From: a virus
IMG/VR virus record: IMGVR_UViG_3300026263_000200
DNA length: 64,000 bases
Strand: one strand, 5' to 3'
Positions 1 to 17,840 of the stretch are shown one piece after another; the stretch's first letter is position 1, and each line of letters begins with the position of its first letter. The position numbers were made by a program, and so were the translations under genes. The notes below the pieces were generated by a model. The model was not told the origin of the DNA, did no database searches, and saw only the letters and a program-made list of their open reading frames with translations.

Positions 1-1200
1 TATATAAAAGCAATTAAAGACCAATATAAGATTTATGAAAATGTTGTTTTTGACCATTACACACCAACTACAGATGAAATAACTTTAGTACTAGGTAGAA
101 GTATGATAACTTTACCATACCTAGAAAAAGACAAATATACTAAAGACCAATTATTAACTTTACATTTATTATTTACTAATAAAATAATAGCACTTTATTC
201 AGAAAATCATCCTAGAGATTATCAATTAGCTAGAGCATATTTTAATACTGTTTCACCTCCTAAAAAAGTTTATGACTTATGCGATTATGAAGTTTATACA
301 AATGGAGTTGGTAAACAATATCAAAAAATAATTAACTTTGATGTATATAAACCTATAAAAGATGATATTCAATTTAAATATTTATTTTTAGGAACAAATG
401 AAACATATTATAAAGAAATTGAGAAAGTAATTGACAAGTATCCAGACCACGGTATTATAACATATAATGAGAAATGGATTAATCCCAAATTGAATAATCT
501 TTTTGCTCCTATTGATAATATACTAGGTAAATTTGAAACATATGTTTATACAAAACCAAATTTTGATCCAGCACCTAGACTTTTTGTAGAATTTAAATGG
601 TTAGGTAAAAAAATAGAGTATTTACGAGATAAGAATATAAAAGATGGTGGTATGGTGTACTGGAACAGACCTGTACCTACAAAGCAGATATATTCAGACA
701 ACATAAATATTCTTATTGATTTGATTAGGTATTTGGTACCAATGAATGAACGGAAAAAAAAGAGTATGCTTGGTGTAATTCAAGAAGTACAAAAAAAATA
801 TTTACCAGCTATTAAAAAGGGTTGGGACAATAATATCTTACCACAGACTTCTAACTTATATTATAAAAGAGGTTGGGATAAGAATCCAAAATTTCCTAAA
901 GGTCAACAAGAGATAGAATTATCTAAATTATGGATAGATAAGTCTATACAAACTAGTAGGAGTATTGATTCAATAGATAGAATTATAAAAAATTTTAAAC
1001 CTGAAAAATGTTTACCAATTACTTGTATTAAATCTTTAAATGAAGACAAGTATTATGTAATTGATGGACAACATAGAGTTATAATTTTTGGATTATTAGG
1101 TATTACTAAAATACAAGCAGATGTTCAGGAAGAAAAGAGTGTTAAAGATTTTTATTTACCAAATGATGAAATTTTAGTTGACAAAGAAACAGGAATATGA
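1..1200 (+). CDS. 5'-truncated protein: uncharacterised N-terminal region fused to a C-terminal ParB/sulfiredoxin-like domain
   Basis: Frame 1 is open from base 1 (YIKAIKDQY...LGRS) into the listed ORF at 103, so the real start is probably upstream of the window. C-terminal YYVIDGQHRV...LG is a ParB/Srx motif. Confidence 0.55.
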   Translation, partial: YIKAIKDQYKIYENVVFDHYTPTTDEITLVLGRSMITLPYLEKDKYTKDQLLTLHLLFTNKIIALYSENHPRDYQLARAYFNTVSPPKKVYDLCDYEVYTNGVGKQYQKIINFDVYKPIKDDIQFKYLFLGTNETYYKEIEKVIDKYPDHGIITYNEKWINPKLNNLFAPIDNILGKFETYVYTKPNFDPAPRLFVEFKWLGKKIEYLRDKNIKDGGMVYWNRPVPTKQIYSDNINILIDLIRYLVPMNERKKKSMLGVIQEVQKKYLPAIKKGWDNNILPQTSNLYYKRGWDKNPKFPKGQQEIELSKLWIDKSIQTSRSIDSIDRIIKNFKPEKCLPITCIKSLNEDKYYVIDGQHRVIIFGLLGITKIQADVQEEKSVKDFYLPNDEILVDKETGI

Positions 1201-1937
1201 AAAAAATATTATTAGTTAGTGGTTGTAGTTTTACAGATAAACTTTTTATAAGTGATTATCATATCAAGTTAAATACATTTTGGCCTAAATGGCCAGAGAT
1301 ACTAGCAAAAAAATTAGATATGGAAGTTATTAATCTTGGTAAAATGGGAGCGGGTAATGAATATATTTACTCTAGTTTATTGGACGCAATAGAAAGTGTT
1401 GATAATATAGGATTAGTAATACCTGCTTGGTCTCAATCTCAAAGACGTGATTGGAAAGTAAAAAGTAAATGGTTTAATAATTCTTGGTATTGTAATACAG
1501 ATTGGCAGATAAATCAACCTAATAGTAATGATATGTATGCTTACATAGATAAATCTTTAAGATATTATTATAGTCTTCAAGAGTTATGTAAATCTAAAAA
1601 GATACCATATAAAGCATTTCAAATGCTTCATATATTTCGTGGATATACTTGGGATAAATTAACTCAAAGACATATAATAGCACCACAAATAGATTTCAAA
1701 ACAGCAAACAAAGAGTTATTAAATCATATTCATAATAGTATTTATTTTGATAAGATAGATGATAGTTTTTTAGGTTGGCCTGGTGATCCAGATTTAGGTG
1801 GTTTTAGTATTAAAAGTGATATACTAGGTGGTTATGGAAAAGAAAGTTTAGAGTGGGCAATTTCAGCAAGAGATAATCATCCTAATGAAAAAGGACAAGA
1901 AAAAATAGCGGAGTTTTTATATGACAGGTTGGGATAG
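1197..1937 (+). CDS. SGNH/GDSL hydrolase-fold protein (esterase or O-acyltransferase-like)
   Basis: GCSFT block I, GAGN block II, C-terminal DNHPN (DxH). ATGA overlap with the upstream gene. Confidence 0.7.
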   Translation: MKKILLVSGCSFTDKLFISDYHIKLNTFWPKWPEILAKKLDMEVINLGKMGAGNEYIYSSLLDAIESVDNIGLVIPAWSQSQRRDWKVKSKWFNNSWYCNTDWQINQPNSNDMYAYIDKSLRYYYSLQELCKSKKIPYKAFQMLHIFRGYTWDKLTQRHIIAPQIDFKTANKELLNHIHNSIYFDKIDDSFLGWPGDPDLGGFSIKSDILGGYGKESLEWAISARDNHPNEKGQEKIAEFLYDRLG

Positions 1938-3195
1938 AGAATATTTAGCAAACAAAGAAGAGTATTTAAAAATCTTTGATGGTGCTATGCAACAAGAACA
2001 GGAACAAAATGTAGAGTTCCTTGAAAAGAGTCTTACTAAAATAACAGGTAGAAAATATGCTGTTGCTTGTAATAGTGGTACAGACGCATTACATTTTGCT
2101 TTAATTAGTTTAGACATTAAACCTTATGATGAAATATTGACAACAGAATTTTCTTGGATATCTACTGCTTCTTGTATATCAATGGTAGGTGCAACACCTG
2201 TATTTTGTGAACCTAATATTTTAAATTATCATATGGATTTAGACAGTATTAAAAAGATGTATTCACCAAAAGTAAAGGCAATAATTTATCCACATCTATT
2301 TGGTAATATGTCTGATACAAAAGAGATATTAGATTTTTGTAAAGAAAAGAATATCGCATTTATAGAAGACGCCGCTCAATCATTGGGTGCTAGTTTAAAT
2401 GATGTTAAGGCAGGTTCAATAGGAGATGTTAGTTGTTTAAGTTTCAACGCAAATAAAGTTGTTGCTGGTATAGCAGGTGGTGGAGCAATCTTAACAGATG
2501 ATAAAGACAAAGCAGAATTGTTTAGAAAGTTAAGAAGACACGGCAACAATGAAGTGTTAGGTCGTAACTCAAAAATGTTAATGCTTAATGCTTGTTTTAT
2601 TAACTTTAGATTAAAGAAGATGAACGAATGGATATCTAAAAGACAAGAGATAGCAAAACAATATGATGAACAATTAAAAGATTATGTGACCATACAACCT
2701 ACAACAAATGGTCTTAATCATAACTATCACAAATATGTTATTAGATTGCAGAATAAAAAAGTAAGAGATATGGTTAAAGATAAACTAGGTGCGAAAGTAC
2801 ATTATGATAAACCTTTGTCTGAAAATACTATGTATAAAAAAATTGCTCATAGAAAAGATAAAACTTTTATTAGTAAGATTATTTGTGATACTATATTAAC
2901 GTTACCTATACACCCTTATATGAAACAAGAAGAGATTGATGAAGTTATTAATACAATTTTAATTTTATTAGGACACGAAGAAAATAAGTTTGTAAAGAAT
3001 ATGAAAAGAGTATTGGGTGATGATTTATTTGACAAGAGTTTAGTCAACGAAACAACTGAACCTATTTACGATTATATTGTAGAGAAGACATATCAAACAC
3101 CAGGGTATATTGAAGAAGTTGAATTTAAAAATAAAAGAAAGTTGAAGATATCATTTAATAAATTTTATGAAAACATTACAAGAGATACAAGATAA
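1921..3195 (+). CDS. DegT/DnrJ/EryC1/StrS PLP-dependent sugar aminotransferase
   Basis: NSGTDAL, IEDAAQSLGA, SFNANK (PLP lysine) and LTLPIHP motifs, plus an extra C-terminal tail of about 70 aa. Confidence 0.92.
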   Translation: MTGWDREYLANKEEYLKIFDGAMQQEQEQNVEFLEKSLTKITGRKYAVACNSGTDALHFALISLDIKPYDEILTTEFSWISTASCISMVGATPVFCEPNILNYHMDLDSIKKMYSPKVKAIIYPHLFGNMSDTKEILDFCKEKNIAFIEDAAQSLGASLNDVKAGSIGDVSCLSFNANKVVAGIAGGGAILTDDKDKAELFRKLRRHGNNEVLGRNSKMLMLNACFINFRLKKMNEWISKRQEIAKQYDEQLKDYVTIQPTTNGLNHNYHKYVIRLQNKKVRDMVKDKLGAKVHYDKPLSENTMYKKIAHRKDKTFISKIICDTILTLPIHPYMKQEEIDEVINTILILLGHEENKFVKNMKRVLGDDLFDKSLVNETTEPIYDYIVEKTYQTPGYIEEVEFKNKRKLKISFNKFYENITRDTR

Positions 3196-3991
3196 TTACT
3201 TAGCAATAGATTTTTTCTTATCTATGTCCTGTAATAAGGATTGCCACTATTGTACAAGTTATACTTTAGAAATGAGAAACTTGACAGTAGATATGGACTT
3301 CTTAAAACAGACTTTAGAATATTTAAAAAAATATAAGATAAGAATATGTCTACTTGGTGGTGAACCAGGTCTTATTAAAAATTTAAGAGATGTTATTAAT
3401 GAAATTAAAAAATATCCTAATTTTGTTTGTTCAGTATTATCAAACTCGTTTGTTAGAAAGAGATATCCTGAAATATTAGAAGATAAAGAAATATTGTATG
3501 TTGAACATAATATATTAGATTTTTATGAAAATGAGGTAAAGATGTTAGGCAATTTTGATTTTATACCTGAAAATGATATGAACAATTATAATGTTGTTTT
3601 AAAATCACCTAACTATTTTAAATACAAAGACAATCATAAAGAAGTAATAGAAAAATTAAATCATAAGAATACTATGTGGAAAGCATTTAATGGTAGGTCA
3701 CCAGAGTTTACAGATGTTATACAAGCAGATGAAATAGATAGAAAGATGTGTGCTTCTTTTCCAATGGTGCCTGTTATAGATTTTGAAAAGAAACATATTG
3801 TACATTGTAGTAAAAAGTTTGCAAACAATAAAGAATTATCTAAAACTTTTGCATTGACGCAAGAGAACGTTGATAAGATGATGAATTTTAGATTATTTAA
3901 ATATGAAAACTATTGTAAGACTTGTACTGAATGGGTACAACCAAAAGGACATTTTCCTATGAGAAAATATGCGAAGGTATTAAATGACTAA
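3167..3991 (+). CDS. Radical SAM enzyme with C-terminal SPASM/twitch-like Cys cluster
   Basis: CNKDCHYC, LLGGEP; C-terminal C...HC...YCKTC. Confidence 0.85.
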   Translation: MKTLQEIQDNYLAIDFFLSMSCNKDCHYCTSYTLEMRNLTVDMDFLKQTLEYLKKYKIRICLLGGEPGLIKNLRDVINEIKKYPNFVCSVLSNSFVRKRYPEILEDKEILYVEHNILDFYENEVKMLGNFDFIPENDMNNYNVVLKSPNYFKYKDNHKEVIEKLNHKNTMWKAFNGRSPEFTDVIQADEIDRKMCASFPMVPVIDFEKKHIVHCSKKFANNKELSKTFALTQENVDKMMNFRLFKYENYCKTCTEWVQPKGHFPMRKYAKVLND

Positions 3992-5471
3992 AATATTTGC
4001 AGTTGCATTAAATCTACACGACCACAATACATATGACGGTGTTTGGCATAATCAAAGAGAAAGACATACTAGATTTAAACATAATCTTCCTTATAAGGTA
4101 GACTCTTATGCTCATCAGGAGCAATTAGAAACAGGTGATTATAAATTAAATAACGAATTTGTTAAAGAGTATTTTCATAAACCAAGAGAGGGAGTATTAG
4201 GTTTTTCAATGACGGTTGGTGGTATTAGAATGTGTAAAGATATATTACCAAAAGAAGTATTAGATTATAAACCTAAAAAATTATGGGACTATTGTATGGC
4301 AGATGGTATGTATTTTATAGACCATCATCAATCTCACGCTACTTATGCGTTTATCAATTCTGGTTATGAACAATCAGATATAGTTGCTATTGATGGTATA
4401 GGTTATAAACATAGATGTATATTTGTTGATAAAGATTATAATATTAAAGACTTGTCAAAAGAATTGCCTATAGGTTGGTTGTGGAATCAAATGTCAAAAC
4501 GAACTGGATTTGGTTCGTTAGGTGCAAGTAAATTAATGGGGTTAGTTGGTTATGGAAGATTTAGTCCATATTATTATAATGTATTTGAAACAATACTTGA
4601 TGATGTTATAAAAGAAAAAAATTATAAAACTCACGAATTAATTAATGTAGAAGAATATGGTGTACCAGATTTGGCATTTACATTACAAAAATTTACAAAT
4701 GATAAAATTAAAGAACATATCTATCCATTAAAGACTTGCGACAATCTTTGTTTAGCTGGAGGAGTTATATACAATGGTTATTTAAATGAAGAGTTTACAA
4801 AACATTATAAAAATGTTTATATACCACCTGCTGTAGGTGATGAAGGACAGTCATTAGGAGTTTATCAACACGCTGATTATATATTGAATAAGAATAAACA
4901 TAAGACAGAAACTTTTGCTGGAAGAGAACACGAATATACTGGCAATTCACTTGTTAATCTTCAAGATGTTGCTCAAGAAATTGCTAATGGAAAAATAGTA
5001 GGTTGGTTTCAAGGTAAATCAGAAAGTGGTAATCGTGCATTAGGTAATAGATGTATATTAGCAGACCCTAGAAGAAAAGATATTAAAGATGTAATTAATG
5101 ATACAATTAAAGATAGAGAAGACTTTAGACCTTTTGCGCCTGCTGTATTAGAAGAACATTATCAAGAATACTTTGATACAAAAAGTCCTAGTCCTTATAT
5201 GTCAAGAATATGTAAAGTTAAATCTGATAAAGTGCCAGGTATAACTCATATAGATAATACAGCAAGAATACAAACAGTTAATAAGAAATTTAATGAAAAG
5301 TTTTATAATCTTATTAATGAGTTTTATAAGATAACAGGTATACCAATGCTATTAAATACTAGTTTTAATTGCCACGAACCTATTGTTGAGTCACCAGAAG
5401 ACGCAATTAGAACTTTTAAAAGAACAAAACTAGACATATTGGTAATAAACAACTATATAGTAAGAAAATGA
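3984..5471 (+). CDS. Carbamoyltransferase, NodU/CmcH/TobZ family
   Basis: HHQSHA, IDGIG, KLMGL, LAGGV..NG, GDEGQSLG, RALGNR, REDFRPFAP, LLNTSFN motifs. Confidence 0.93.
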   Translation: MTKIFAVALNLHDHNTYDGVWHNQRERHTRFKHNLPYKVDSYAHQEQLETGDYKLNNEFVKEYFHKPREGVLGFSMTVGGIRMCKDILPKEVLDYKPKKLWDYCMADGMYFIDHHQSHATYAFINSGYEQSDIVAIDGIGYKHRCIFVDKDYNIKDLSKELPIGWLWNQMSKRTGFGSLGASKLMGLVGYGRFSPYYYNVFETILDDVIKEKNYKTHELINVEEYGVPDLAFTLQKFTNDKIKEHIYPLKTCDNLCLAGGVIYNGYLNEEFTKHYKNVYIPPAVGDEGQSLGVYQHADYILNKNKHKTETFAGREHEYTGNSLVNLQDVAQEIANGKIVGWFQGKSESGNRALGNRCILADPRRKDIKDVINDTIKDREDFRPFAPAVLEEHYQEYFDTKSPSPYMSRICKVKSDKVPGITHIDNTARIQTVNKKFNEKFYNLINEFYKITGIPMLLNTSFNCHEPIVESPEDAIRTFKRTKLDILVINNYIVRK

Positions 5472-6181
5472 AACATTTTGATTTATTAGAAGGAAGACAT
5501 CACGTAGGTAAATATAGTGATAAGGTTCCACCAAAAAAATTAATAGAAACGGCATTGTGGAAGGCTTGGAAAACAACACCATCTAAAAACAATGCTATGC
5601 CTTATAAAGTATTTGTATTTGGTCCTGAACACAAAGCAGAAAAAGTTAAAGTTTGGAAAATGGTATTCGGTAATCATATTAACGCTGAAAAAAGAGCAGT
5701 AGAAAGAGGTGACGCTGATAAAACTGAAGGTGGTAAACCAAATCCCTTTTATGAACATATAAAATATAATCCTTATTTGTTTTGTATTCACGCTCAACCA
5801 AGAGAACCTAATGAGTTTTATAAAAAACAAGTTGAGTTAGGTATGTTTTTTGACCAAGCGTGGCCAGAAAGAATTGAAAAATTTATGGATACTACTGCTT
5901 TGGAAGTGGGTATGTTTGCTCAAAATTTATCAAGTTATTTGTTAGAAGAAAAAATAGATGTTTCATATACTTCTTGTTTTTTTAGAAATGCTGAGAAATG
6001 GAGATTAATTGGATTAGACCACGCTGAATATAGACCAATAATGTTAATAACTGCTGGTTATGGTGAAGTGTATAGAAAAGATGTATTAAAAAATTGGGGT
6101 TTTGAATGGCAAGTTGAAACTATGGATAGGTCGGGTGAGGATATAAAACCTGAATACAAGGATATGATAAAATGGAAATAG
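5468..6181 (+). CDS. Nitroreductase-family flavoprotein
   Basis: R..V.KY..K.P, AW.TTPSKNN..PY, and G...QNL...L...G-like pattern of the FMN-binding nitroreductase fold. Confidence 0.75.
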   Translation: MKHFDLLEGRHHVGKYSDKVPPKKLIETALWKAWKTTPSKNNAMPYKVFVFGPEHKAEKVKVWKMVFGNHINAEKRAVERGDADKTEGGKPNPFYEHIKYNPYLFCIHAQPREPNEFYKKQVELGMFFDQAWPERIEKFMDTTALEVGMFAQNLSSYLLEEKIDVSYTSCFFRNAEKWRLIGLDHAEYRPIMLITAGYGEVYRKDVLKNWGFEWQVETMDRSGEDIKPEYKDMIKWK

Positions 6182-6756
6182 ATTTACAATTATTTAAAAA
6201 TATAATGCAGGAGGCAAGGACTAATACTGACCTATTAGATTCATATAGTCCTAATCAATTTAAATCTAAAGAGAGATTAATAGATTTAATTAAAAATTTA
6301 AATACAGAATTTCAAGATGTTGTTATATTAGGTTGTTGGTATGGTAGTATTTTAATTCCTGCTCTCAAAGAATCAAAAAGAATTACAGGTATTGATATTG
6401 ATGATAAAGTAATTAGTATTGCTAAGAATAGACTTTTTAAAAATTGGAAAAATGTTGACTTAATAACAAGTGATGTTTTTTCTAAAGATAGATTTGGTAG
6501 AATTAAGAATACAAATTTAATTATTAATACTGCTTGCGAACATATGAAACCAATGAAAGAGTTAGAAGCATTAAGTGAATCTAAATCATACTTTGCTTTT
6601 CAATCAAATGATATGACTGATATAGAAGGACATATTAATTGTGTTAATACTATTGAAGATTTTAAAAAACAATTACCTGATAATGCAAAAGTATTAATTG
6701 AAGATGAAATAAAAGACGATAGAGGTGTTAGATTTACATTGATAGGTAAGTTATGA
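6172..6756 (+). CDS. Class I SAM-dependent methyltransferase
   Basis: VVILGCWYG motif I, ITGIDID, LIINTACEH. Confidence 0.75.
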   Translation: MEIDLQLFKNIMQEARTNTDLLDSYSPNQFKSKERLIDLIKNLNTEFQDVVILGCWYGSILIPALKESKRITGIDIDDKVISIAKNRLFKNWKNVDLITSDVFSKDRFGRIKNTNLIINTACEHMKPMKELEALSESKSYFAFQSNDMTDIEGHINCVNTIEDFKKQLPDNAKVLIEDEIKDDRGVRFTLIGKL

Positions 6757-7601
6757 AAAGAGTAATCTATAGTCTTTATGTTGATGTACCTGCTAAAGAA
6801 CATTATGGTCAATCTAAACAAAGAAATGATACAGTAGCCAAAGCAAAAATAACTGTAAATGCTTTTAAAAAGCATTATAAAAAATTAGTTGAATCTAAAC
6901 GTAAGTATGCTAACAGCATAGGTGCGAGTTTTGTTATGTTTGAAAATGATAAACGTTATGAAACATATGAAAGAAATTTACGTAAAGACTTTCCTCAATT
7001 AACAGGTTATGAAATAGTTAATTTCTATAAGATACATTTACTATATGAATTAGCAAAAAAGTATGATGAGATTTTGTATTTAGATTTTGACGCTGTACCA
7101 TTAACTACTGATTCATTTTTTGATGTATGGGATGTACAAAATCATATTGCTGTTTATAATCAAAACCATATGATTAATAAAGATAGAGATGTTAGACATA
7201 GTATTAGAAGTCCATCGGCAAAGTATTTCAATTGTCAGGCAATGCTTATAGATAAAGGTTTTGATCCTAGAAATGATGTTATCAATACTGCTATTATAGG
7301 TGCGTCAAAAAAACAAATTTTAAAACTAGATTTTTTTGGTGGGTTTAAAGATACGATAGATTTAATGACAAAATTAAGAAATGATAAGAGTGGTTTGTAT
7401 CCACAAAATATTCTTGATATGTTTAGATATGATAATGAAACAATCTTTTCATATAAAGTAAATGTAAATAAAATTGGTATACAATGGTTAGATAGAAGAT
7501 GGCATTACTTCTTTGATACTCAACATTTTATACCAGATGAAGCAAAGATAGTACACGCTGTCTGTAAAGATTTTGATGTTGTATGGAGAAAGTATGCTTA
7601 A
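6753..7601 (+). CDS. GT-A fold glycosyltransferase-like protein
   Basis: YKIHLL...ILYLDFD (DxD), INTAII, DNET, IVH; GT8/GT34-like pattern. Confidence 0.7.
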   Translation: MKRVIYSLYVDVPAKEHYGQSKQRNDTVAKAKITVNAFKKHYKKLVESKRKYANSIGASFVMFENDKRYETYERNLRKDFPQLTGYEIVNFYKIHLLYELAKKYDEILYLDFDAVPLTTDSFFDVWDVQNHIAVYNQNHMINKDRDVRHSIRSPSAKYFNCQAMLIDKGFDPRNDVINTAIIGASKKQILKLDFFGGFKDTIDLMTKLRNDKSGLYPQNILDMFRYDNETIFSYKVNVNKIGIQWLDRRWHYFFDTQHFIPDEAKIVHAVCKDFDVVWRKYA

Positions 7602-8340
7602 AATTTGTACAGTATATTTTGATGGTTATTATACACCAGATTATGTATCAAAGTTATATAGAAGTTTAAAAAGAAATTCATCTATACCTTTTGAGTTTAT
7701 CTGTTTAAGTGATAATAAAGACATTGAAGCAGATGTTATATTACCATATAATCATCACGATAAGATTAAGAAACATTGGCACAAATTAAAATTCTTTAGT
7801 CCACATTTTGCATATCAAAACCCTGGTGATGATATTATAGTTATGGATATAGACCAAGTTATTACAGGCAATGTAGATGAATTAATAGGGCATCCTGTAC
7901 AAGATAATGAATTAGTTACCTATGGTATATGGTGGGAATCAAAGTTAAAAACAAATGGTGGTTTTTATAAATTTAAGTCTGGTAGTTTAAAGCATATATG
8001 GGATGATTTTGCTAAAAATCCTGACTATTGGCAATTACATTATTATAATAATGGTGATGTTCATACAAAATATTATGGTGAACAAAACTATGTTAACTGG
8101 AAGATACAAGAATATAAAACTAAATTAACTAGAACACCTGAAAAATGGATATGTAAATACTCATCCGATTTCAAAGAAAATTTGGTTTTGAATAGTGTTT
8201 ATTGTAGTAAGTTTGATACAGATTATATGATACTTGGTGACGTGCATAAATATATTAAAGTGGTTCATTTCACAGGTCCAGGTAAGACCATACACGAACA
8301 TAATGAATCATTTATAAAGGAACATTGGAATGGATATTGA
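7573..8340 (+). CDS. GT-A fold glycosyltransferase-like protein (start possibly 7594)
   Basis: YV.KL, FICLSD, HWHKLKFF, MDIDQVI (DxD), GEQNYV, VVHFTG. Confidence 0.75.
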   Translation: MMLYGESMLKICTVYFDGYYTPDYVSKLYRSLKRNSSIPFEFICLSDNKDIEADVILPYNHHDKIKKHWHKLKFFSPHFAYQNPGDDIIVMDIDQVITGNVDELIGHPVQDNELVTYGIWWESKLKTNGGFYKFKSGSLKHIWDDFAKNPDYWQLHYYNNGDVHTKYYGEQNYVNWKIQEYKTKLTRTPEKWICKYSSDFKENLVLNSVYCSKFDTDYMILGDVHKYIKVVHFTGPGKTIHEHNESFIKEHWNGY

Positions 8341-9202
8341 AGATAAAATAAAAAATATGTTTTATGATTGGGATGCTGAAAAGACGACACTTCTTCAAAT
8401 GCAGAAATGTCAAAGAAATTGGGACTATGAAAAATTTGATTCAGGAAATCAACCTCTTTTGAAAGAAATGATAAAAGAATTATTATGGATTGCTACTAAC
8501 ACACCTTCAAAACAACACGAAGGATATTATGATGTTTATTGGACAGCAGATAGAGAATTAATACAAGAATTATCCAGATATACTTGGGGTTATACTCATA
8601 GAAGAAATCCACCAGCAACTTGGAGAAACTCACAATCAAACGCAAGTATTTATTTTGTATGGGTTGGAAAAGAACCTAACTCACAATTAAACGCCAACGC
8701 AGACGGTACTTTAAAATCTAATACAGATAAGAATAGATGGCAAAATGCTTATTGTAGTATAGGTATATCAATAGGTTTAACTATGAGAGCGGCAGTCAAA
8801 ATGGGATTTCATACAGGTGCAAATAAAAGTCATAATGATATAAACGGTGATGACTTCTGGCCAAGAAAATTAGGTATTATGGAAGAAGTAAAAAATGGTA
8901 CAAAAGAAATATGTTATGGTATGGGTATAGGTTATCCACAAAAAGGAAGACCTCGTTGGGAATCAGATGAAGACGAAATAATGATTGGCGCTGCTAATGG
9001 TAGTAAGATTACAACTACTGGACAAGAAACACATCCTAGAACAGGTAAAGAAATGAGAAAAGCGAAAATTGTTAAATTATCTGAACACGGTGGTAAGATA
9101 ATGAGAGACCCATATGGTAATATTCACGAAATTCCAAAAAAAGCAGAATTTAAAATTAATTCATTTAGACAGCGTGGTATTGAAATTAAAGAAATAAAAT
9201 GA
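8330..9202 (+). CDS. Nitroreductase-fold protein with long C-terminal extension
   Basis: CQRNWD, ATNTPSKQ, SIGISIG...AAVKMGFHTG, MGIGYP. Confidence 0.65.
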   Translation: MDIEDKIKNMFYDWDAEKTTLLQMQKCQRNWDYEKFDSGNQPLLKEMIKELLWIATNTPSKQHEGYYDVYWTADRELIQELSRYTWGYTHRRNPPATWRNSQSNASIYFVWVGKEPNSQLNANADGTLKSNTDKNRWQNAYCSIGISIGLTMRAAVKMGFHTGANKSHNDINGDDFWPRKLGIMEEVKNGTKEICYGMGIGYPQKGRPRWESDEDEIMIGAANGSKITTTGQETHPRTGKEMRKAKIVKLSEHGGKIMRDPYGNIHEIPKKAEFKINSFRQRGIEIKEIK

Positions 9203-9771
9203 GAATAATTTGTTGTAGATTTGGTGATAAGTTTACTAATTGGCATATTAAAAATTTGAAACATATGATAGACACTTATTCAGGTCTAAAGTATGATGAG
9301 TTTGTTGTTGTATCTTCTGACTTATATGGCAACTGGTATAACAAACTTCAAATGTATGATATCTATAGAGATGGAGAAAACTTATACTTTGATTTAGATG
9401 TGATTATCTATGATAAACTACCTAACTTACAAAGAAAATACTTTACATTGTTAGATGATACTTGGTGGAGAGAACCTGCTCATACACCATTAAACTCTTC
9501 TGTTGTATCTTGGACAGGTGATGTATCATACATATGGAATACATTTAAAACAAATGAAGAATTTTATTTAAAAGAATATAATAAAGGTAGTGATGAGTTT
9601 TATTACCACGAGGTAACATATGATACATACGATAAAGTTTGTCCAAAGTTTAATGCAGATGGACCAGATAAAAATTATAGTATGTGTACACTTGGTCAAT
9701 TACATCACATAATGGAGGAAGGCTGGACTGGTTGGTGGACGCCTTATTTTTTACCATATGAAAAAATTTGA
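9199..9771 (+). CDS. GT-A fold glycosyltransferase-like protein
   Basis: ICCRFGDKF, WYNKLQMY, LYFDLDVII (DxD), LNSSVVSW, GSDEF; resembles 7573..8340. Confidence 0.72.
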   Translation: MRIICCRFGDKFTNWHIKNLKHMIDTYSGLKYDEFVVVSSDLYGNWYNKLQMYDIYRDGENLYFDLDVIIYDKLPNLQRKYFTLLDDTWWREPAHTPLNSSVVSWTGDVSYIWNTFKTNEEFYLKEYNKGSDEFYYHEVTYDTYDKVCPKFNADGPDKNYSMCTLGQLHHIMEEGWTGWWTPYFLPYEKI

Positions 9772-10510
9772 TAGTTTAAAAGATGTTGAAGCAATAGGTA
9801 AAGCAATTTTATCTGATTTAGTTGTTGTCATAAAAAAACAAACATTATCTGAACAAGATGAATTAGATTTTGTTTCTAAAATAGGCAACTTTCAAAAAAC
9901 TATTAGTGACCGTACAAAACATATTCATTTATCAGACGGTATATTAAGAGTAACAGGTCAAAAAAATAAACACGGTGAAGAAGGTTTATTTGGTCATACA
10001 AGCGCTTTAGATTGGCACGCTAACCAAGCAAGTAATAAAAATAGAAAGCCTTTAATTTGGATATATGCCAAAGAATTTTCAAAAGGTAGTAAGACAAGTT
10101 GGATAGACAATGTAGCAAGTTATAATAGTTTGCCTACATCTTTAAAAGAAAAAATCAAAGATGTTAAAATAACATTAGGTTATACAGCAGGTGGTTATTC
10201 TACATCTACTTTCTTTAAAGAGCACCATCATAAAGATGAAACTTTTGATTTAGTATATACAAATGCTGCTGGAAAAACTGGTTTATATTTTCCATTTAAT
10301 CAGATATTTGGTGGTATAGAAAAAGATGTGTTTGAAGAATTAAAAGAACACGTATTACAAGATAGATTTAGATATGACCATTATTGGGAAGATGGTGATG
10401 TTGTTATAAGTGAACAATGGTTATCTATTCATAAGCGTTGGGAGTTTAAAGATATGAACAAAAGAGTATTGCATAGAATAGCATTTGACTATTCAAAGTT
10501 AGGAGTATAA
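9758..10510 (+). CDS. TauD/TfdA-family Fe(II)/2-oxoglutarate dioxygenase (atypical H-x-N)
   Basis: DWHAN, T.WID...Y..LP, H.WEDGDVVI, IHKR, RVLHR. Confidence 0.8.
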   Translation: MKKFDSLKDVEAIGKAILSDLVVVIKKQTLSEQDELDFVSKIGNFQKTISDRTKHIHLSDGILRVTGQKNKHGEEGLFGHTSALDWHANQASNKNRKPLIWIYAKEFSKGSKTSWIDNVASYNSLPTSLKEKIKDVKITLGYTAGGYSTSTFFKEHHHKDETFDLVYTNAAGKTGLYFPFNQIFGGIEKDVFEELKEHVLQDRFRYDHYWEDGDVVISEQWLSIHKRWEFKDMNKRVLHRIAFDYSKLGV

Positions 10511-11130
10511 TGAAAGAATATCATCAATTATTAACATTTGGAGATTGCATAGAATTAAAATTTAAGTGTGATACAAAAAAGCTATTAAAAGAGATAAAAG
10601 ATTTTGAATGGTTGCAATACAATCCTAGAAAGAAAATTAATAGATATGGATTAAGTATAACAAGTTTAGATGGTAAACGAAATGGTATTGATTTAGATTC
10701 TATATGGGAATACAATAAAGAAAATAATACAAAGTATGGTGAAGAGAGTTTTAAAACTAAAACAGATGTTTATTATGCAAGTGAAGAAACAAGAAAATTA
10801 TGTGAACCCTTTGACCCTTGGTTATGTAGAACGCATTTTTTAAATGTTAGAAGAGGTGGATTCTTTCCTTTACATAGAGACCAAAGAACAACTAAATTTT
10901 TTAAAACTTTTAGAGTATTAGTACCTATATCTAATTGTAATCCAGGTCAGTTATACTTTATACACGATAATAAAATATTAAACTTTAATCACGGACACGC
11001 ATATTTTTTAAATACTAATAAAGAACACGCTATATTTTCTTATGATGATAAAGCTATAATGTTAGTTATAAATATAGAATGTACACCTGAATCTGTAGAG
11101 AAAGTTATAACGAATAGTAGATATGCTTAA
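10510..11130 (+). CDS. Aspartyl/asparaginyl beta-hydroxylase-like Fe/2OG oxygenase
   Basis: GGFFPLHRD (HxD), RVLVP, FLNTNKEH (distal His). Confidence 0.7.
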   Translation: MKEYHQLLTFGDCIELKFKCDTKKLLKEIKDFEWLQYNPRKKINRYGLSITSLDGKRNGIDLDSIWEYNKENNTKYGEESFKTKTDVYYASEETRKLCEPFDPWLCRTHFLNVRRGGFFPLHRDQRTTKFFKTFRVLVPISNCNPGQLYFIHDNKILNFNHGHAYFLNTNKEHAIFSYDDKAIMLVINIECTPESVEKVITNSRYA

Positions 11131-11135
11131 TATTT

Positions 11136-11975
11136 ATGAGACCAGAAGATAGTAAATTTAAAGCAGTCTATTGTGATATAGTACATAGATGTAATATGGA
11201 GTGTGCTAATTGTTATTTACCTTTCAGACATTATCCAGATTTAAATACAGATAAAGTTATTGACTTTATAAGAAGATTTAAAGTTAAAACTGAATTTAGA
11301 TTTATTGGTGGTGAACCCACATTACATAAAGATTTAGCAAAGATTATAAAAGAGGCAACATCACTTGGTCATAGAACAACTATTGCAACTAATGGATTAA
11401 GAATTGCCCATTATCATTATTTAAAAGAATTAAAAGACGCTGGATTGAAAACTGTATATTTAAGTATGACTGGTTTTGATGATGATAAAGTATATGAAAT
11501 AACTGATAGATTAAAATGTGCTAAGAAGAAAATGGAAGCATTAGCAAATTGTTTATCTTTAAAATTACGGTTGTCTATTGGTTGTATTGTTATTAAAAAT
11601 TTGAACGAACATATTATAGATAGAATGGTTGCGTATAAAGATAATAATAAAATGCGAATAGGTACATCTTTTGAGTTTAGAAATGTTGGACAAGTAGGAC
11701 GATATATGATTGAAAAGGATCAGAATTATAAGTTTGATGAATTAAAACAGTTGATATCAGACAAGTTTGGTATAAATCCGAATCCAAAAATATTTGAAGA
11801 TAATCAGTATGCTTGGACGGTAATACACGGAAAATATAGAATAAATATAACTAATTGGGAAGGAGCTGATGGAGGATTTAATGATGAAACAAATACCATA
11901 CGTGGTAGATTAACTCAAAATTTTGAAGTTGCTCCTTTTTTAGAACATATCAAAGAAAACGCTGGAGGATATTAA
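11136..11975 (+). CDS. Radical SAM enzyme (MoaA-like core, no SPASM)
   Basis: CNMECANC, FIGGEPTLH, IATNG. Confidence 0.85.
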   Translation: MRPEDSKFKAVYCDIVHRCNMECANCYLPFRHYPDLNTDKVIDFIRRFKVKTEFRFIGGEPTLHKDLAKIIKEATSLGHRTTIATNGLRIAHYHYLKELKDAGLKTVYLSMTGFDDDKVYEITDRLKCAKKKMEALANCLSLKLRLSIGCIVIKNLNEHIIDRMVAYKDNNKMRIGTSFEFRNVGQVGRYMIEKDQNYKFDELKQLISDKFGINPNPKIFEDNQYAWTVIHGKYRINITNWEGADGGFNDETNTIRGRLTQNFEVAPFLEHIKENAGGY

Positions 11976-12733
11976 TGAGTAAAAGTAAAATCAATTTGTG
12001 GTTTATATTTTGGCCTATTCAAATATTAGCTTTATTAGGTATTATTTTTACATCACCTAATTGGTTATATTTGTTATTAGGTTGGATACTTTTTTGTGGA
12101 TTAGGTTCTGCTGTTATTTTACATAAAGTTGTAAGTCATAAATCTATTAAACTAAAGAAGTGGTTGAAAAAACCATTATTATTTTTATCTTGTTTATGTG
12201 TGCAAGGTAGTCCTTTGTGGTGGGCGGCAACGCATAGAGGTAAACATCACCCACACGCTGACAAAGATGGAGACCCACATAGTCCTAAAGATGGTTTCTT
12301 TCACTCTTATATTGGGTGGCTACATAATAGAAAATTAGGTAAGATTAATACTAGATTTATTCCTGATATAAGAAAAGATAAATTTCATCTATGGTTAAAT
12401 CGTAGATACACTTATATTGTTTTGGCAACTTTTATAGTATTAGGTTTAATTAATATAGAATTTATGTTATGGTTTTGGTTGATACCAGCGGTATTATCAT
12501 TTCATCAAGAAGCAATTGTTAATTCAGTTTGTCATTTAGGTAAATTTGGTTATAGAACATTTGACACAAAAGATAAGTCAATGAATATACCTTTACTTGC
12601 ATTATTGACTTGGGGTCAAGCATTACATAATAATCACCATTATGATTATGATTCATATAATTTTGCTAAAAAGAAAAATGAGTTTGATCCTTGTACGTTA
12701 TTTTTACCTTTTATAGAGGAAAAGGTTCGTTAG
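11975..12733 (+). CDS. Membrane acyl-CoA/acyl-lipid delta-9-type fatty acid desaturase
   Basis: Three His boxes (HKVVSH, HRGKHH, HNNHH), DPHSP, NSVCH, and hydrophobic segments. Confidence 0.9.
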   Translation: MSKSKINLWFIFWPIQILALLGIIFTSPNWLYLLLGWILFCGLGSAVILHKVVSHKSIKLKKWLKKPLLFLSCLCVQGSPLWWAATHRGKHHPHADKDGDPHSPKDGFFHSYIGWLHNRKLGKINTRFIPDIRKDKFHLWLNRRYTYIVLATFIVLGLINIEFMLWFWLIPAVLSFHQEAIVNSVCHLGKFGYRTFDTKDKSMNIPLLALLTWGQALHNNHHYDYDSYNFAKKKNEFDPCTLFLPFIEEKVR

Positions 12734-13265
12734 TATCTGATATTTTTTTATATGTAATATGTTGCAAACAATTTCTTTCTGTTCCTTTACATACCCATTT
12801 TTTATCATCACATAAAGACCACCCTGGACTGTATTCATTTGCTTGTTCAGTCCATCTCTTTAAGTAATTTCTTTTCTGACCTTCAATAGATAGAAAGACA
12901 TAATCTTTACCTATACTTTTACAATATTCTATTTGGTGGTCGTGTATTAATTTTGATATGATACCAAATGTGGGATTGACCCAATCAAATTTTTTATTTC
13001 TTAATAAACGATTAAATATTCTACTAACATTTTTAGGCCAAATAGGTCTACTTAATACTGAAGCGAAAGCTACAATATTGCCTTTATAGACAATTAAAGT
13101 AATATCATCTAAACTGTTAAATTTTATATTTTCAGGTGTATAATTACTACTTAACTTATCAGTAGAATTGCTAAACTCATCTAATAATAAATTTAGCTTT
13201 TCTTTATAATGCAAGTAATTATGTTTATTAAAAACCTGATATTGGTTTATATCATTTGGAAGCAT
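12711..13265 (-). CDS. Putative GNAT-fold acyltransferase
   Basis: LIVYKGNIVAFA beta-hairpin, RIFNRL, and helix QIEYCKSIGKDYVFLS resembling GNAT motifs A/B. Convergent with the desaturase. Confidence 0.45.
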   Translation of the reverse strand: MLPNDINQYQVFNKHNYLHYKEKLNLLLDEFSNSTDKLSSNYTPENIKFNSLDDITLIVYKGNIVAFASVLSRPIWPKNVSRIFNRLLRNKKFDWVNPTFGIISKLIHDHQIEYCKSIGKDYVFLSIEGQKRNYLKRWTEQANEYSPGWSLCDDKKWVCKGTERNCLQHITYKKISDTNEPFPL

Positions 13266-13280
13266 AATAAAAATTATATA

Positions 13281-13571
13281 TTAGGAAACGTCTAATGTTT
13301 CTATTATACCATTTTTATCATTATAAGACATCCTACTATTCTCATAATCCGTACATAAATCATTATCTCTAAAAGGTATATAATCTTCATCATTTGGAAA
13401 TGTAAAAGACCGAGTTCTTATTAAACCAGTTTCATCAGTACTACCACCATTATCTATTATTTTTCCACTATCTTCTGCTTCTTTTATTAATGCCAACATT
13501 TCAGCTGAACCTTCGTGAAAGGCAACACCTGTGTTAGGTCTTGTTTGGGTTAAAACTACTGTTATAGCCAT
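13281..13571 (-). CDS. Small acidic hypothetical protein, late-expressed
   Basis: AGGAG RBS (ctcct at 13580-13584) and a reverse late promoter at 13590-13597. Confidence 0.7.
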   Translation of the reverse strand: MAITVVLTQTRPNTGVAFHEGSAEMLALIKEAEDSGKIIDNGGSTDETGLIRTRSFTFPNDEDYIPFRDNDLCTDYENSRMSYNDKNGIIETLDVS

Positions 13572-13589: not shown

Positions 13590-13608
13590 TATTTATATCT
13601 TATAAATA
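13590..13608. promoter_or_regulatory. Back-to-back divergent T4-type late promoters
   Basis: tatttata (13590-13597, minus-strand TATAAATA) and tataaata (13601-13608). Confidence 0.8.
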
Positions 13609-16191: not shown

Positions 16192-16409
16192 TGTTTAAAT
16201 GGCTTAAAAAATTAATTAATAAAACAGTAAGTTCTTACGACCCAATTAAACCAAAAAAAGAAGTTATAGCATTAAAAGAATTATCAAAAAGAACTAAAAA
16301 ACAATTAGAGTCTATTGGTAGAAAAATGGGAATTGAATTAGATAGAAGATTATCAAAATCAAAATTAATAAACAAAATTAAATTTAGAGCTAGATTAAGA
16401 AGAAAATAA
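16191..16409 (+). CDS. Small basic protein with HeH/SAP-like motif
   Basis: TKKQLESIGRKMGIELDRRLSKSKLI; very Lys/Arg-rich. Confidence 0.55.
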   Translation: MFKWLKKLINKTVSSYDPIKPKKEVIALKELSKRTKKQLESIGRKMGIELDRRLSKSKLINKIKFRARLRRK

Positions 16410-16789: not shown

Positions 16790-16797
16790 GATAAATT

Positions 16798-17169: not shown

Positions 17170-17209
17170 AAAAAATGAGAAAAATAAATATAACAAATAG
17201 AGAAAATCA

Positions 17210-17836: not shown

Positions 17837-17840
17837 AATG

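Follow-up and report, generated by a model that had tools for sequence, protein, structure and literature searches.

A syntenic module of probable sugar-building and sugar-decorating genes in the host recognition cluster of a pelagimyophage

Related systems and the position of the operon

Virus-encoded glycosylation of the virion is found in chloroviruses and mimiviruses, where glycosyltransferases encoded near structural genes decorate capsid or fibre proteins; giant viruses additionally encode DegT-type aminotransferases and methyltransferases for their virion glycans. Mycobacteriophages provide a phage precedent of the same kind (Freeman et al. 2023, PMC10527164, as cited in PMC12801897). 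None of these systems is known to involve radical SAM, carbamoyltransferase or nitroreductase partners. In pelagimyophages, Zaragoza-Solas et al. (2020, PMC7029224) described a hypervariable island, the host recognition cluster, which extends from VrlC to a neck gene and includes tail fibres, GT8 genes and radical-SAM cassettes. That outline treated the enzymes as a variable lipopolysaccharide-related set; the structure of the enzyme module is new here, and we add its conservation, its inversion as a block, a sub-core of wider distribution and its promoters.

The window (the whole stretch analyzed, 64,000 nt of IMG/VR record IMGVR_UViG_3300026263_000200) derives from a pelagimyophage (a T4-like phage that infects SAR11 bacteria in the ocean) and has Pelagibacter phage Mosig among its relatives. 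Positions 1 through 12733 hold 15 ORFs in the program-made ORF list, all on the + strand; 13 of the 14 junctions between adjoining ORFs overlap by 1 to 29 nt and the remaining one is a 5-nt gap, as a first-pass annotation of co-oriented, nearly all overlapping or abutting ORFs had it. Neither sigma70-like sites (94 observed, 101 expected) nor terminator-like sites (3 observed, 3.2 expected) are enriched inside this interval, consistent with a single long operon. This operon falls inside the host recognition cluster as published, with VrlC, which adjoins the cluster in relatives, on one side and the neck gene on the other (gp14-like; 28822 through 29640). The tail-fibre genes, correctly named as neighbors in that annotation, lie downstream, and heme oxygenase and bilin reductase genes (26623 through 27962) share the same hypervariable region. 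The features are as follows.

1-1200 (open at the 5' end), +: ORF1, GT-B-fold glycosyltransferase-like protein with a C-terminal ParB/sulfiredoxin-like DGQHR domain; conserved core gene truncated by the window start
1197-1937, +: ORF2, SGNH/GDSL-like hydrolase candidate; GCS block at residues 9-11 (GxS), invariant D226/H228 (D-x-H)
1921-3195, +: ORF3, DegT/DnrJ/EryC1-family sugar aminotransferase (Pfam 2.8e-79)
3167-3991, +: ORF4, radical SAM protein of a phage-restricted family with four additional invariant cysteines (Pfam 1.3e-8)
3984-5471, +: ORF5, NodU/TobZ-type O-carbamoyltransferase (Pfam C domain 3.5e-67, N domain 1.5e-17)
5468-6181, +: ORF6, nitroreductase-fold flavoenzyme, optional core gene (Pfam 9.1e-11)
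6172-6756, +: ORF7, class-I SAM methyltransferase (six methyltransferase Pfam families, E 4e-5 to 6e-3, all sub-cut-off)
6753-7601, +: ORF8, GT8-family glycosyltransferase (Pfam Glyco_transf_8, 33.0 bits, cut-off 24.3; E 6e-8)
7573-8340, +: ORF9, phage glycosyltransferase family (phrog_1962, 1.7e-17)
8330-9202, +: ORF10, nitroreductase-like, optional (Pfam E 0.0096 in the window; orthologue in lineage L003 24.3 bits, cut-off 23.5)
9199-9771, +: ORF11, highly conserved protein with an invariant YFDLD (DxD-like) motif; last conserved-core gene
9758-10510, +: ORF12, TauD-family protein, variable cassette (Pfam 9.8e-25)
10510-11130, +: ORF13, cupin Fe/2OG dioxygenase-like, Asp/Asn beta-hydroxylase-like, variable cassette (invariant H122, D124, H173)
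11136-11975, +: ORF14, MoaA/TrsS-like radical SAM, variable cassette (Pfam 6e-21; NCBIfam matches)
11975-12733, +: ORF15, membrane fatty-acid desaturase/hydroxylase family, variable cassette (FA_desaturase Pfam 2.9e-19)
14479-26230, +: tail-fibre gene array (PHROG tail-fibre families, e.g., phrog_9851, 1.2e-220 for 17868-22520)

Mosig EXVC030M, the only cultured phage with an orthologous cluster (Mosig_00082-00094; MT647606), shares 77% nucleotide identity with the window over 38% of the query and 57 to 85% protein identity for the nine always-present core genes. It differs in its convergent arrangement, an additional radical SAM/SPASM pair, the absence of the ParB-like fusion and a different, larger redox cassette on the minus strand; its genome announcement does not discuss the cluster. 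Full-length homologs (at least 80% of the query) of ORF4 and ORF11 occur in no GenBank phage record but Mosig. Cyanomyophages offer a further comparison in their Nol-like carbamoyltransferases and LPS-type gene clusters: cyanophages account for most of the 141 phage records with ORF5 homologs, at <60% identity (30 to 39% among the matches listed), whereas ORF4 and ORF11 find no match in cyanophage records. In both cyanophage records inspected, P-SSM7 and S-CAM8, the carbamoyltransferase is solo, in S-CAM8 amid 2OG oxygenases and tail-fibre genes. Although the region had been described and the Mosig genes annotated, the statement that no characterized phage pathway has this combination of enzymes stands.

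Enzymes of the core and the variable cassettes

Profile matches bear out the first-pass assignments of the DegT aminotransferase, the carbamoyltransferase, the glycosyltransferases ORF8 and ORF9, the radical SAM proteins ORF4 and ORF14, the nitroreductase ORF6, the TauD protein and the desaturase. For ORF3, the closest NCBIfam models are PseC and LegC, with scores far under the equivalog cut-offs. ORF5 matches NovN, GdmN and TobZ in the PDB (1e-43 to 4e-49) and is closest to O-carbamoyltransferases that target sugar or macrolactam hydroxyls. The ORF4 family is rare (146 representatives among 1.84 billion proteins) and keeps CX3CX2C, GGE (GGEP in at least 90%), C195, C214, C250 and C253 invariant; its nearest solved relatives include, as weak matches, BtrN-type radical SAM and viperin-like enzymes. 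Together, ORF4, ORF3, ORF5 and ORF1 recall BtrN/BtrS and TobZ in setting a small auxiliary-cysteine radical SAM enzyme beside a DegT aminotransferase, an O-carbamoyltransferase and a GT-B protein, but ORF4 resembles BtrN only marginally, over the N-terminal core alone (E 2e-4).

ORF1 had been left unnamed. Residues 1 through 293 of the predicted model of its L003 orthologue match PimA (2gej; VIA Z 15.2), and the T4 alpha- and beta-glucosyltransferases match the GT-B fold with Z 12.9 and 10.4. The DGQHR domain (approximately residues 290 through 399 of the window fragment) matches sulfiredoxin (3hy2), with weak ParB matches; the fusion is restricted to the window, L003 and L010.

Four other assignments are weaker. 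Several class-I families match the methyltransferase ORF7, all under Pfam cut-offs; the second nitroreductase, ORF10, is weak in the window and above cut-off in L003. The GxS block, the invariant D-x-H and an Atlas lead to SGNH/DUF6071 clusters favor an SGNH protein for ORF2, which has no match among Pfam or PDB sequences. In ORF13, the second Fe/2OG enzyme, an HxD...H motif is invariant and the PDB gives a weak beta-hydroxylase match (E 0.008); the protein is 54% identical to a stretch annotated Mosig_00081 (Asp_Arg_Hydrox domain). The reading of ORF11 as a third GT-A protein was not borne out: its mean column identity is 79 to 80%, and beyond the YFDLD motif it has no Pfam or PDB match and an unusable predicted model (pLDDT 43), with a Pfam domain in none of the best-scoring 120 of its 714 relatives.

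Among the cassette proteins, ORF12 has H-A-N in place of H-x-D, with WHAN/WHSN kept in seven homologs. ORF15, with three hydrophobic segments and three His boxes (HKVVSH, HRGKHH, HNNHH), is the sole membrane protein of the operon; no core protein has a hydrophobic segment.

Synteny and promoters of the module

ORF1 through ORF11 are one syntenic unit, probably sugar-building and sugar-decorating, present in hundreds of marine phage contigs. After dereplication, ORF1 through ORF4 are present in 24 to 26 of 26 evaluable lineages and ORF7, ORF8, ORF9 and ORF11 in all 31, with ORF6 in 26 and ORF10 in 15 of the 31. Across 49 dereplicated lineages, ORF1 through ORF5, ORF7, ORF8, ORF9 and ORF11 show near-universal co-occurrence and constant gene order, and these nine stay ordered at protein identities down to ~40%; the ORF3-ORF4 linkage is still seen where ORF4 relatives share only 26 to 29% identity. 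The identities of ORF1, ORF3, ORF4, ORF5 and ORF7 co-vary (rho 0.60 to 0.82), and the ORF1-ORF11 block flips between lineages as one unit relative to VrlC-h295-h309-SDR-h158.

ORF12 through ORF15 are swappable cassettes: only 2 to 7 of 14 evaluable lineages have them, both their strand and the end of the block at which they lie vary, and other genes take their place in a relative 85 to 91% identical. The first-pass annotation had taken all 15 genes as one pathway, to be checked by gene-neighborhood co-occurrence; the core travels together and fits that view, while the four cassettes, varying between relatives, do not.

A sub-core (GT-B, DegT, radical SAM, carbamoyltransferase and methyltransferase) recurs in a second T4-like lineage, probably with a larger genome. 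Of 80 loci of that lineage, 59 hold it, with neither VrlC nor large fibre genes inside ~10 kb; it sits there in islands of at least 20 kb with more radical SAM proteins, an ATP-grasp ligase and a B12-binding radical SAM.

In Mosig, L028, L033 and L056, a palindrome, TATTTATATAAATA, which reads as a T4-late-type box either way, stands 5 nt ahead of the first ATG. Of 17 TATAAATA boxes in the window, 16 are on the + strand, most at most ~40 nt upstream of structural genes. In the closest relatives, VrlC and a fibre-like gene run gaplessly into the operon, and the orientation of the SDR gene always follows the structural VrlC block. A conserved sigma70-type TTGAY-N17-18-TATAAT precedes the ORF1 ATG by 5 nt in 12 of 16 convergent-arrangement loci examined, suggesting early expression as well. 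These motifs suggest that the operon is expressed late and often early too.

Proposed pathway and its acceptor

ORF1 through ORF11 probably constitute a soluble cytoplasmic pathway that builds a short aminated, carbamoylated and methylated glycan from host sugar nucleotides. All steps are proposed from family membership and gene linkage. A nucleotide-sugar epimerase/dehydratase gene, which adjoins the block in relatives and would lie just upstream of the window, may join the pathway. ORF1 would attach the first sugar to the acceptor; ORF4 and ORF3, always linked, would convert a sugar hydroxyl or keto position to an amine by BtrN/BtrS or DesI/DesII logic; ORF5 would O-carbamoylate a sugar hydroxyl, ORF7 methylate, and ORF2 remove or move an acyl group. 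The chain would be extended by ORF8, ORF9 and possibly ORF11, with the nitroreductase-fold proteins as putative accessory redox partners; ORF12 through ORF15 could vary the product as exchangeable redox cassettes or have another role. Complete relatives encode no sugar-1-phosphate nucleotidyltransferase, so host NDP-sugars must be used, and NeuB is absent from related genomes.

The acceptor may be virion proteins, either tail fibres or VrlC-associated baseplate proteins encoded on both flanks of the operon, in which case the phage particle would bear a lineage-specific glycan coat. This is the target we tentatively favor, as did the first-pass annotation from position. Fibre genes lie directly downstream, the operon is continuous with VrlC in the closest relatives, and late-type boxes and SDR orientation agree, as does the mycobacteriophage precedent. 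However, position and late co-transcription are weak predictors because unrelated metabolic genes (heme oxygenase, bilin reductase) share the hypervariable region, and the second lineage carries the sub-core away from VrlC and large fibre genes. The sigma70-type promoter at ORF1 and the membrane-bound, lipid-acting ORF15 also count against virion proteins, and the published proposal is host O-chain modification (PMC7029224).

Alternatively, the same pathway might remodel the host envelope, working at the inner membrane from its cytoplasmic side and acting on lipid A-core or a different envelope glycolipid of the infected SAR11 cell; we rate this as somewhat less likely. The altered surface would block superinfection by rival pelagiphages and stop progeny adsorbing to doomed cells or debris, and acyl chains would be the substrates of the AspH-like, TauD-like and desaturase cassettes. 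Early expression from the sigma70-type promoter and the three His boxes of ORF15 fit such a role. The GT8, GT4-like, DegT/ArnB-like and NodU-type families all include lipopolysaccharide-synthesis members, and known lipopolysaccharide enzymes of related families include ArnB (DegT family), WaaG (GT4), LpxO (Asp/Asn beta-hydroxylase family) and the NodU-type carbamoyltransferase of the Pseudomonas core cluster. Yet flippase, polymerase, ligase and polyprenyl-phosphate transferase genes are absent in and beside the cluster, the core proteins lack membrane segments, lipopolysaccharide pathways seldom use radical SAM, SPASM or nitroreductase enzymes, and both the late-type promoters and the way the operon runs on directly from structural genes point elsewhere; seroconversion through glycan modification is known as a trait of temperate phages and not of lytic T4-like ones. 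The solubility of the proposed enzymes, their aminoglycoside-like logic (ORF4 weakly resembling BtrN; ORF5 resembling TobZ, NovN and GdmN) and the radical SAM- and ligase-rich islands of the second lineage would also suit a natural-product-type cluster, in which the sub-core (its radical SAM being twitch-like), the flavoenzymes and the radical SAM/SPASM pair would make a product aimed at the host or at competitors, either a pseudo-oligosaccharide with decorations or a glycosylated, cofactor-like molecule of peptide origin. We consider this improbable: a 2-deoxy-scyllo-inosose/dehydroquinate-synthase-type cyclase is absent in five related genomes, the gapless operon leaves no room for a precursor-peptide-sized ORF, no export or self-resistance gene was identified, and we know of no phage-made metabolite of such kind.

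Least probable, in our judgment, is hypermodification of phage DNA bases (or tRNA) against host nucleases, comparable to T4 glucosyl-hmC or 5-carbamoyloxymethylcytosine, which the first-pass annotation had kept as an alternative. A phage-borne enzyme of the NodU family, to which ORF5 belongs, does carbamoylate 5-hydroxymethylcytosine in phage DNA (Yang et al. 2021, PMC8670742), the GT-B fold of ORF1 resembles the T4 glucosyltransferases and in the window is fused to a DGQHR domain, often tied to DNA, and early-type promoters are present. However, what defines the Yang et al. enzyme is that it occurs together with a dCMP hydroxymethylase of thymidylate-synthase-like type, and none of six related records has an intact copy of the latter: it is absent in Mosig, in the 100%-complete G001 and in G002, G003 and G007, and the distant copy in G006 is interrupted by two in-frame stops. 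Carbamoyltransferase and synthase homolog co-occur only in modified contigs, carbamoyltransferases flanked by glycosyltransferases coming from unmodified ones (PMC8670742), and restriction systems are almost never found in SAR11 (PMC7029224). The ParB-like fusion is limited to three lineages; a Tet/JBP search gave no match, its control being likewise silent. Scarcely more credible is a mosaic, gathered in a hyperplastic region, of auxiliary genes that are each useful by themselves and share no product: ORF6, ORF10, ORF12 through ORF15, the ParB-like domain and the radical SAM/SPASM pair do come and go among close relatives, and the cyanophage ORF5 homologs are solo genes in unrelated contexts, but the nine core genes keep the same order in 24 to 26 of 26 or 31 of 31 lineages and invert as one block.

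Organization and genomic setting of the operon

The first-pass annotation had placed 15 plus-strand ORFs between base 1 and 12733, and the ORF listing bears this out. Fourteen junctions separate these ORFs: by their coordinates, 13 are overlaps of 1 to 29 nt and the remaining one is a gap of 5 nt; the GC content (27 to 30%) is at the low end of the range for the window. Neither sigma70-like sites (94 vs. 101 in shuffled sequences) nor terminator-like sites (3 vs. 3.2) are enriched within the operon, which fits a single long transcription unit. The operon and the features downstream of it are as follows.

1-12733, plus strand: 15-gene operon, ORF1 to ORF15
12711-13571, minus strand: two convergent ORFs (184 and 96 aa) overlapping the end of ORF15
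13590-13597, minus strand: late-type box just upstream of the 184-aa and 96-aa ORFs
14479-26230: tail fibres
26623-27962: heme oxygenase (PF01126, 2.4e-21) and ferredoxin-dependent bilin reductase (PF05996, 2.8e-15)
28822-29640: neck protein

Neither of the two minus-strand ORFs has a Pfam or PHROG match. The window also encodes T4-type neck, gp15, terminase, sheath, and scaffold proteins. When 50,697 phage records were compared with it at the nucleotide level, a single relative emerged, Pelagibacter phage Mosig EXVC030M (77% identity, covering 38% of the query). The Mosig cluster is orthologous to that of the window but larger and is not discussed in the Mosig genome announcement. The heme oxygenase and bilin reductase pair is flanked by the fibre genes on one side and the neck genes on the other; relatives of this phage have a nonphotosynthetic host.

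The region between VrlC and the neck gene gp14 has been defined as the pelagimyophage “host recognition cluster”, a hypervariable island containing fibres, GT8 glycosyltransferases, and radical-SAM cassettes, for which a role in host O-chain modification against co-infection was proposed (Zaragoza-Solas et al. 2020, PMC7029224). Structural variants were found again in this region in a 2025 long-read study (PMC12379486). The operon sits in this cluster, with VrlC directly upstream in the closest relatives (loci L002 and L003).

Predicted enzymes of ORF1 to ORF15

Domain searches mostly supported the family names given in the first-pass annotation: DegT (ORF3), carbamoyltransferase (ORF5), nitroreductase (ORF6), GT8 (ORF8), TauD (ORF12), radical SAM (ORF4 and ORF14), and fatty-acid desaturase (ORF15). 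ORF3 is a predicted member of the DegT/DnrJ/EryC1 sugar aminotransferase family (PF01041, 267.4 bits vs. a cut-off of 19.8, 2.8e-79; residues 28 through 346 of 424). All equivalog scores (PseC, LegC, ArnB, and DesI) are far below cut-off, the best being PseC at 187.6 bits vs. 423.5, and ORF3 is thus assigned to the family and to no particular equivalog or substrate. ORF5 carries both domains expected of a NodU/CmcH/TobZ-type O-carbamoyltransferase, Kae1-like at the N terminus and YrdC-like at the C terminus (PF02543, 64.5 bits; PF16861, 225.7 bits; both above cut-off), and this putative assignment agrees with PDB matches to NovN, GdmN, and TobZ; against the NodU equivalog (NCBIfam NF041651) it scores 121.7 bits, where more than 1000 are required. 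ORF4 and ORF14 are radical SAM superfamily members, the latter with a Pfam match of 75.8 bits. ORF4 has an invariant CX3CX2C motif (C22, C26, C29), G64-G65-E66, and four more invariant cysteines (C195, C214, C250, C253); it has no SPASM match in Pfam.

ORF8 (PF01501, 33.0 bits vs. a cut-off of 24.3) belongs to the GT8 glycosyltransferase family. Of the three GT-A proteins named earlier, this one and ORF9, a member of a phage glycosyltransferase family, stand; ORF11, presumably the third, offers only an invariant YFDLD motif in which D65-L-D67 is DxD-like. Its predicted model has a pLDDT of 43, and no Pfam domain was found in any of the 120 best-scoring of 714 relatives. Aligned by hhalign with a DXD glycosyltransferase from locus L085, it matches over 20 columns covering the DxD stretch only, and tblastn returns one match to a phage glycosyltransferase (25% identity, E 1e-3).

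Weaker assignments apply to the methyltransferase, SGNH protein, second nitroreductase, and second Fe/2OG dioxygenase of the first-pass annotation. Class-I methyltransferase matches to ORF7 are all subthreshold. An Atlas lead points from ORF2 to SGNH; the protein has GCS at residues 9 through 11 and an invariant D226-x-H228, spaced one residue below the textbook block V Asp-x-x-His, and neither a Pfam nor a PDB match. Sequence and profile searches of the PDB with ORF2, ORF8, ORF9, and ORF11 gave nothing useful. The nitroreductase-like match of ORF10 is weak in the window and above cut-off in the L003 orthologue, and ORF13 combines an invariant HxD...H with a weak beta-hydroxylase match.

By sequence, ORF12 falls in the TauD family (TauD/TfdA, 88.4 bits) with an altered canonical metal site: the first iron motif reads W-H-A-N in place of H-x-D, so that the H-x-D/E...H triad appears incomplete. 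The window and 7/7 homologues from related phage contigs read H-A-N or H-S-N; conservation of the Asn in all seven excludes a sequencing error. In ORF15, three His boxes (HKVVSH, HRGKHH, HNNHH) are accompanied by three hydrophobic segments and a Pfam match of 70.3 bits, as would be expected of a membrane fatty-acid desaturase or hydroxylase. No hydrophobic segment was found in ORF1 through ORF11.

ORF1, left unnamed in the first-pass annotation, is truncated by the window start and comprises a GT-B-fold protein fused to a putative ParB/sulfiredoxin-like domain. In the predicted model (pLDDT 75 to 93 over most of residues 1 through 290), the N-terminal ∼290 residues superpose on PimA (PDB: 2gej) with a VIA Z of 15.2 and an rmsd of 3.7 over 258 residues, and the top 50 structural matches are GT-B enzymes or epimerases. 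The model thus predicts a GT-B glycosyltransferase fold of two Rossmann-like domains superposable on solved enzymes. In the GT4 EX7E motif, E240 is invariant and the second acidic residue is not conserved. The C terminus carries a VIDGQHR motif and, in a low-confidence region of the model, resembles sulfiredoxin-like 3hy2 (Foldseek TM 0.56 on the target); the ParB-like domain scores 20.6 bits against an NCBIfam cut-off of 58.45 and is fused to ORF1 only in the window, L003, and L010.

Conservation, mobility, and predicted promoters of the gene block

To survey conservation, all 15 proteins were mapped onto the best 80 of the 221 viral contigs with a close ORF5, dereplicated to 49 lineages; each gene was judged only on contigs of sufficient length.

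Table. Lineages carrying each gene of the operon
ORF1: 25 of 26
ORF2: 24 of 26
ORF3: 26 of 26
ORF4: 25 of 26
ORF6: 26 of 31
ORF7, ORF8, ORF9, ORF11: 31 of 31 each
ORF10: 15 of 31
ORF12: 3 of 14
ORF13: 7 of 14
ORF14: 2 of 14
ORF15: 5 of 14

The order ORF1-2-3-4-5-(6)-7-8-9-(10)-11 is held down to ∼40% protein identity, with ORF6 elsewhere in a few lineages. This core always adjoins a second conserved block comprising VrlC, a fibre-like 295-aa gene, a 309-aa gene, an SDR gene (nucleotide-sugar epimerase/dehydratase), and a 158-aa gene. The two are co-directional in L002, L003, L010, and L042, and in the window as judged by its 85 to 91% nucleotide identity to L003, and convergent in Mosig and most others; the occurrence of both orientations implies that ORF1 through ORF11 inverted as one piece. 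The L003 core is 77 to 91% identical to the window at the nucleotide level, and ORF12 through ORF15 are replaced there by other genes; in L081 the ORF14-15 pair lies on the opposite strand at the opposite end. A movable pair of radical SAM and SPASM genes, absent from the window, occurs in 48 to 50 of 81 loci (not dereplicated). The earlier reading of all 15 genes as one pathway, which independent assortment across relatives would contradict, is therefore supported for the linked ORF1 through ORF11 and not for ORF12 through ORF15, which assort independently.

Across lineages, identities of 67 to 97% (ORF4) and 62 to 87% (ORF11), with other genes drifted to 40%, point to strong conservation of the module genes; marine metagenome protein clusters number 1047 for ORF4 and 714 for ORF11. 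The ORF4 family is narrow (146 representatives among 1.84 billion proteins), and a cellular origin or counterpart of the cluster was rejected because every ORF4 relative originates from a metagenome or a contig of phage size. A close ORF5 occurs on just three “bacterial” contigs, all of them short and bearing the phage cluster itself; they are binned as Pelagibacter (L082, PAFP01000047.1), Rhodobiaceae (L083, PAHC01000009.1), and Gammaproteobacteria (L084, NYWC01000079.1) metagenome-assembled genomes. L083 has VrlC as well, and all three have the appearance of phage contigs assigned to bacterial bins by mistake.

A second survey, anchored on a 57%-identical ORF4 relative, yielded 123 further viral contigs, of which the best 80 were kept. 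In counts not corrected for contig ends, the ORF4 relative is accompanied by ORF3 in 73 of these loci, ORF5 in 77, ORF7 in 72, and ORF1 in 61; ORF2, ORF8, ORF9, ORF11, and the VrlC block are present in only ∼20. Loci without the latter genes consist of enzyme-sized genes in islands at least 20 kb long. One such island includes further radical SAMs, a nitroreductase, an ATP-grasp enzyme, a B12-binding radical SAM, and ABC-transporter genes; islands of this kind, adjoining an ABC-transporter permease and a solute-binding protein, were noted at L124 (12886 through 19044) and in contigs G003 through G005. The presence of gp23 marks the second-lineage contigs as T4-like, and CheckV completeness estimates imply genomes of ∼350 kb. 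The identities of ORF1, ORF3, ORF4, ORF5, and ORF7 co-vary across loci (rho 0.60 to 0.82, values not independent of phylogeny). A more distant ORF4 relative (26 to 29% identical) lies in a row of radical SAM genes; a DegT gene is found ∼6 kb upstream of it, and the gene immediately downstream encodes a small DXD glycosyltransferase. Cyanophage homologues of ORF5 (141 records) are 30 to 39% identical among those listed; P-SSM7 and S-CAM8, which were inspected, each carry the homologue as a lone gene.

The window contains 17 TATAAATA boxes, 16 of them on the plus strand and most of them 13 to 40 nt before structural genes. Their total equals chance (17 vs. 16.7), and weight attaches only to the strand bias and to the placement before genes. 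At 11067, before ORF14, one box lacks an equivalent wherever else that cassette occurs and is probably a chance occurrence. Elsewhere, a 14-nt palindrome, TATTTATATAAATA, which places a T4-late-type TATAAATA box on each strand, lies between divergent gene blocks (L001, 5928 through 5941; L028, 3677; L033, 4807; L056, 4709; Mosig is among the bearers). Its distance to the start codon of the first plus-strand cluster gene is exactly 5 nt, so the transcript is predicted to be nearly leaderless. In 12 of 16 convergent loci examined (L012, L020, L023, L038, L041, L044, L049, L061, L062, L068, L076, and L079), ORF1 is preceded by TTGAY-N17-18-TATAAT, often with TG before the −10 element and ending ∼5 nt before the ATG. 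A NATAAATA late-type box usually falls inside the spacer or just upstream of this sigma70-type promoter, an arrangement in which early and late promoters would overlap and leave hardly any leader. The co-directional arrangement has neither a gap nor a motif before ORF1, which would therefore be read through from the VrlC block, as inferred for the window. These motifs suggest that the operon is expressed late in the lineages examined, and early as well in many.

Sugar- and LPS-type clusters are an established feature of plastic regions in marine T4-like phages, and a published account of this particular region, including the presence of such genes in it, already exists. What appears to be new, as not found in the pelagimyophage literature examined, is the delineation of an 11-gene unit moving as a block, the five-gene subcore (plus optional partners) common to a second T4-like lineage, the association of a DegT enzyme with a radical SAM family confined to phages, and the predicted dual promoter architecture.

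Candidate pathway and acceptor

The core is a conserved soluble set of up to four glycosyltransferase-like proteins, an O-carbamoyltransferase, a methyltransferase, an esterase-like protein, and flavoenzymes, together with a sugar aminotransferase always linked to the phage-specific radical SAM enzyme. Several known routes were considered for it. In the characterized phage system, the 5hmC carbamoyltransferase is recognized by the presence of a thymidylate-synthase-like hydroxymethylase alongside it, and carbamoyltransferases flanked by glycosyltransferases come from unmodified contigs (PMC8670742). Among six related records searched, PF00303 is absent from Mosig, G001 (100% complete), G002, G003, and G007; a distant thymidylate-synthase-like frame in G006 (L174, G006:C1:120747-121409) has two in-frame TAA stops. 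With no intact hydroxymethylase in the six records, the 5hmC-carbamoyl DNA route was rejected. A search for Tet/JBP gave no match, as did its control, and carries no weight. Searches of five related records found no dehydroquinate-synthase-type cyclase (PF01761; the search control matched in 11 of 14 genomes), no NeuB (PF03102), and no sugar nucleotidyltransferase. A 2-deoxystreptamine (aminocyclitol) pathway was rejected without the cyclase, as was, without NeuB, the nonulosonic-acid pathway prompted by the PseC/LegC-like best matches of ORF3 and a small PseG-like GT-B. The lack of a nucleotidyltransferase means that host NDP-sugars must feed the pathway.

We propose that a short glycan would be assembled on an acceptor from these host NDP-sugars. 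Amination would proceed by radical SAM oxidation or rearrangement followed by transamination, and the glycan would be O-carbamoylated and methylated.

Virion fibre or baseplate proteins are our tentative choice of acceptor, a reading that is possible rather than probable. It is favored by promoters of the late type, by the way the operon continues directly from structural genes, by the all-soluble chemistry, by the SDR gene fixed in the VrlC block, and by precedents of virus-encoded virion glycans. The position next to the fibres, which the first-pass annotation had used to argue for a virion target, proves a weak argument, given the heme oxygenase and bilin reductase in the same island and the occurrence of the subcore elsewhere in other phages. 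Remodelling of the host envelope, rather unlikely on its own yet rated nearly as good, draws on the early-type promoter of most lineages and on ORF15 as a putative membrane lipid enzyme. Lipopolysaccharide pathways include GT8, GT4-like, ArnB-like, LpxO-like, and NodU-like members, which also counts for the envelope, and the same has been proposed in print (PMC7029224).

A far more speculative reading makes the subcore a virus-encoded natural-product pathway for a free carbamoylated amino-sugar metabolite, directed against host translation or competing phages. It would, improbably, enlist the GT-B protein, DegT, the phage-only radical SAM, the O-carbamoyltransferase, the methyltransferase, the flavoenzymes, and the radical SAM/SPASM pair; the metabolite might, at a long stretch, be aminoglycoside-like or a glycosylated peptide-derived cofactor. 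If true, the subcore would rank among the most abundant uncharacterized biosynthetic gene clusters of the surface ocean.

SAR11 is the ocean's most abundant bacterial group, and its myophages spend ∼10 kb, roughly 7% of the genome, on this module. The fate of the product, be it a coat on the virion, a changed surface of the infected cell, or release, would bear on host range, on competition between pelagiphages, and on the chemistry of organic matter from lysis. Mosig and its host are culturable, making the question directly testable for a module that is very abundant in the ocean, and its phage-only radical SAM family, always paired with a sugar aminotransferase, gives enzymologists a concrete target.
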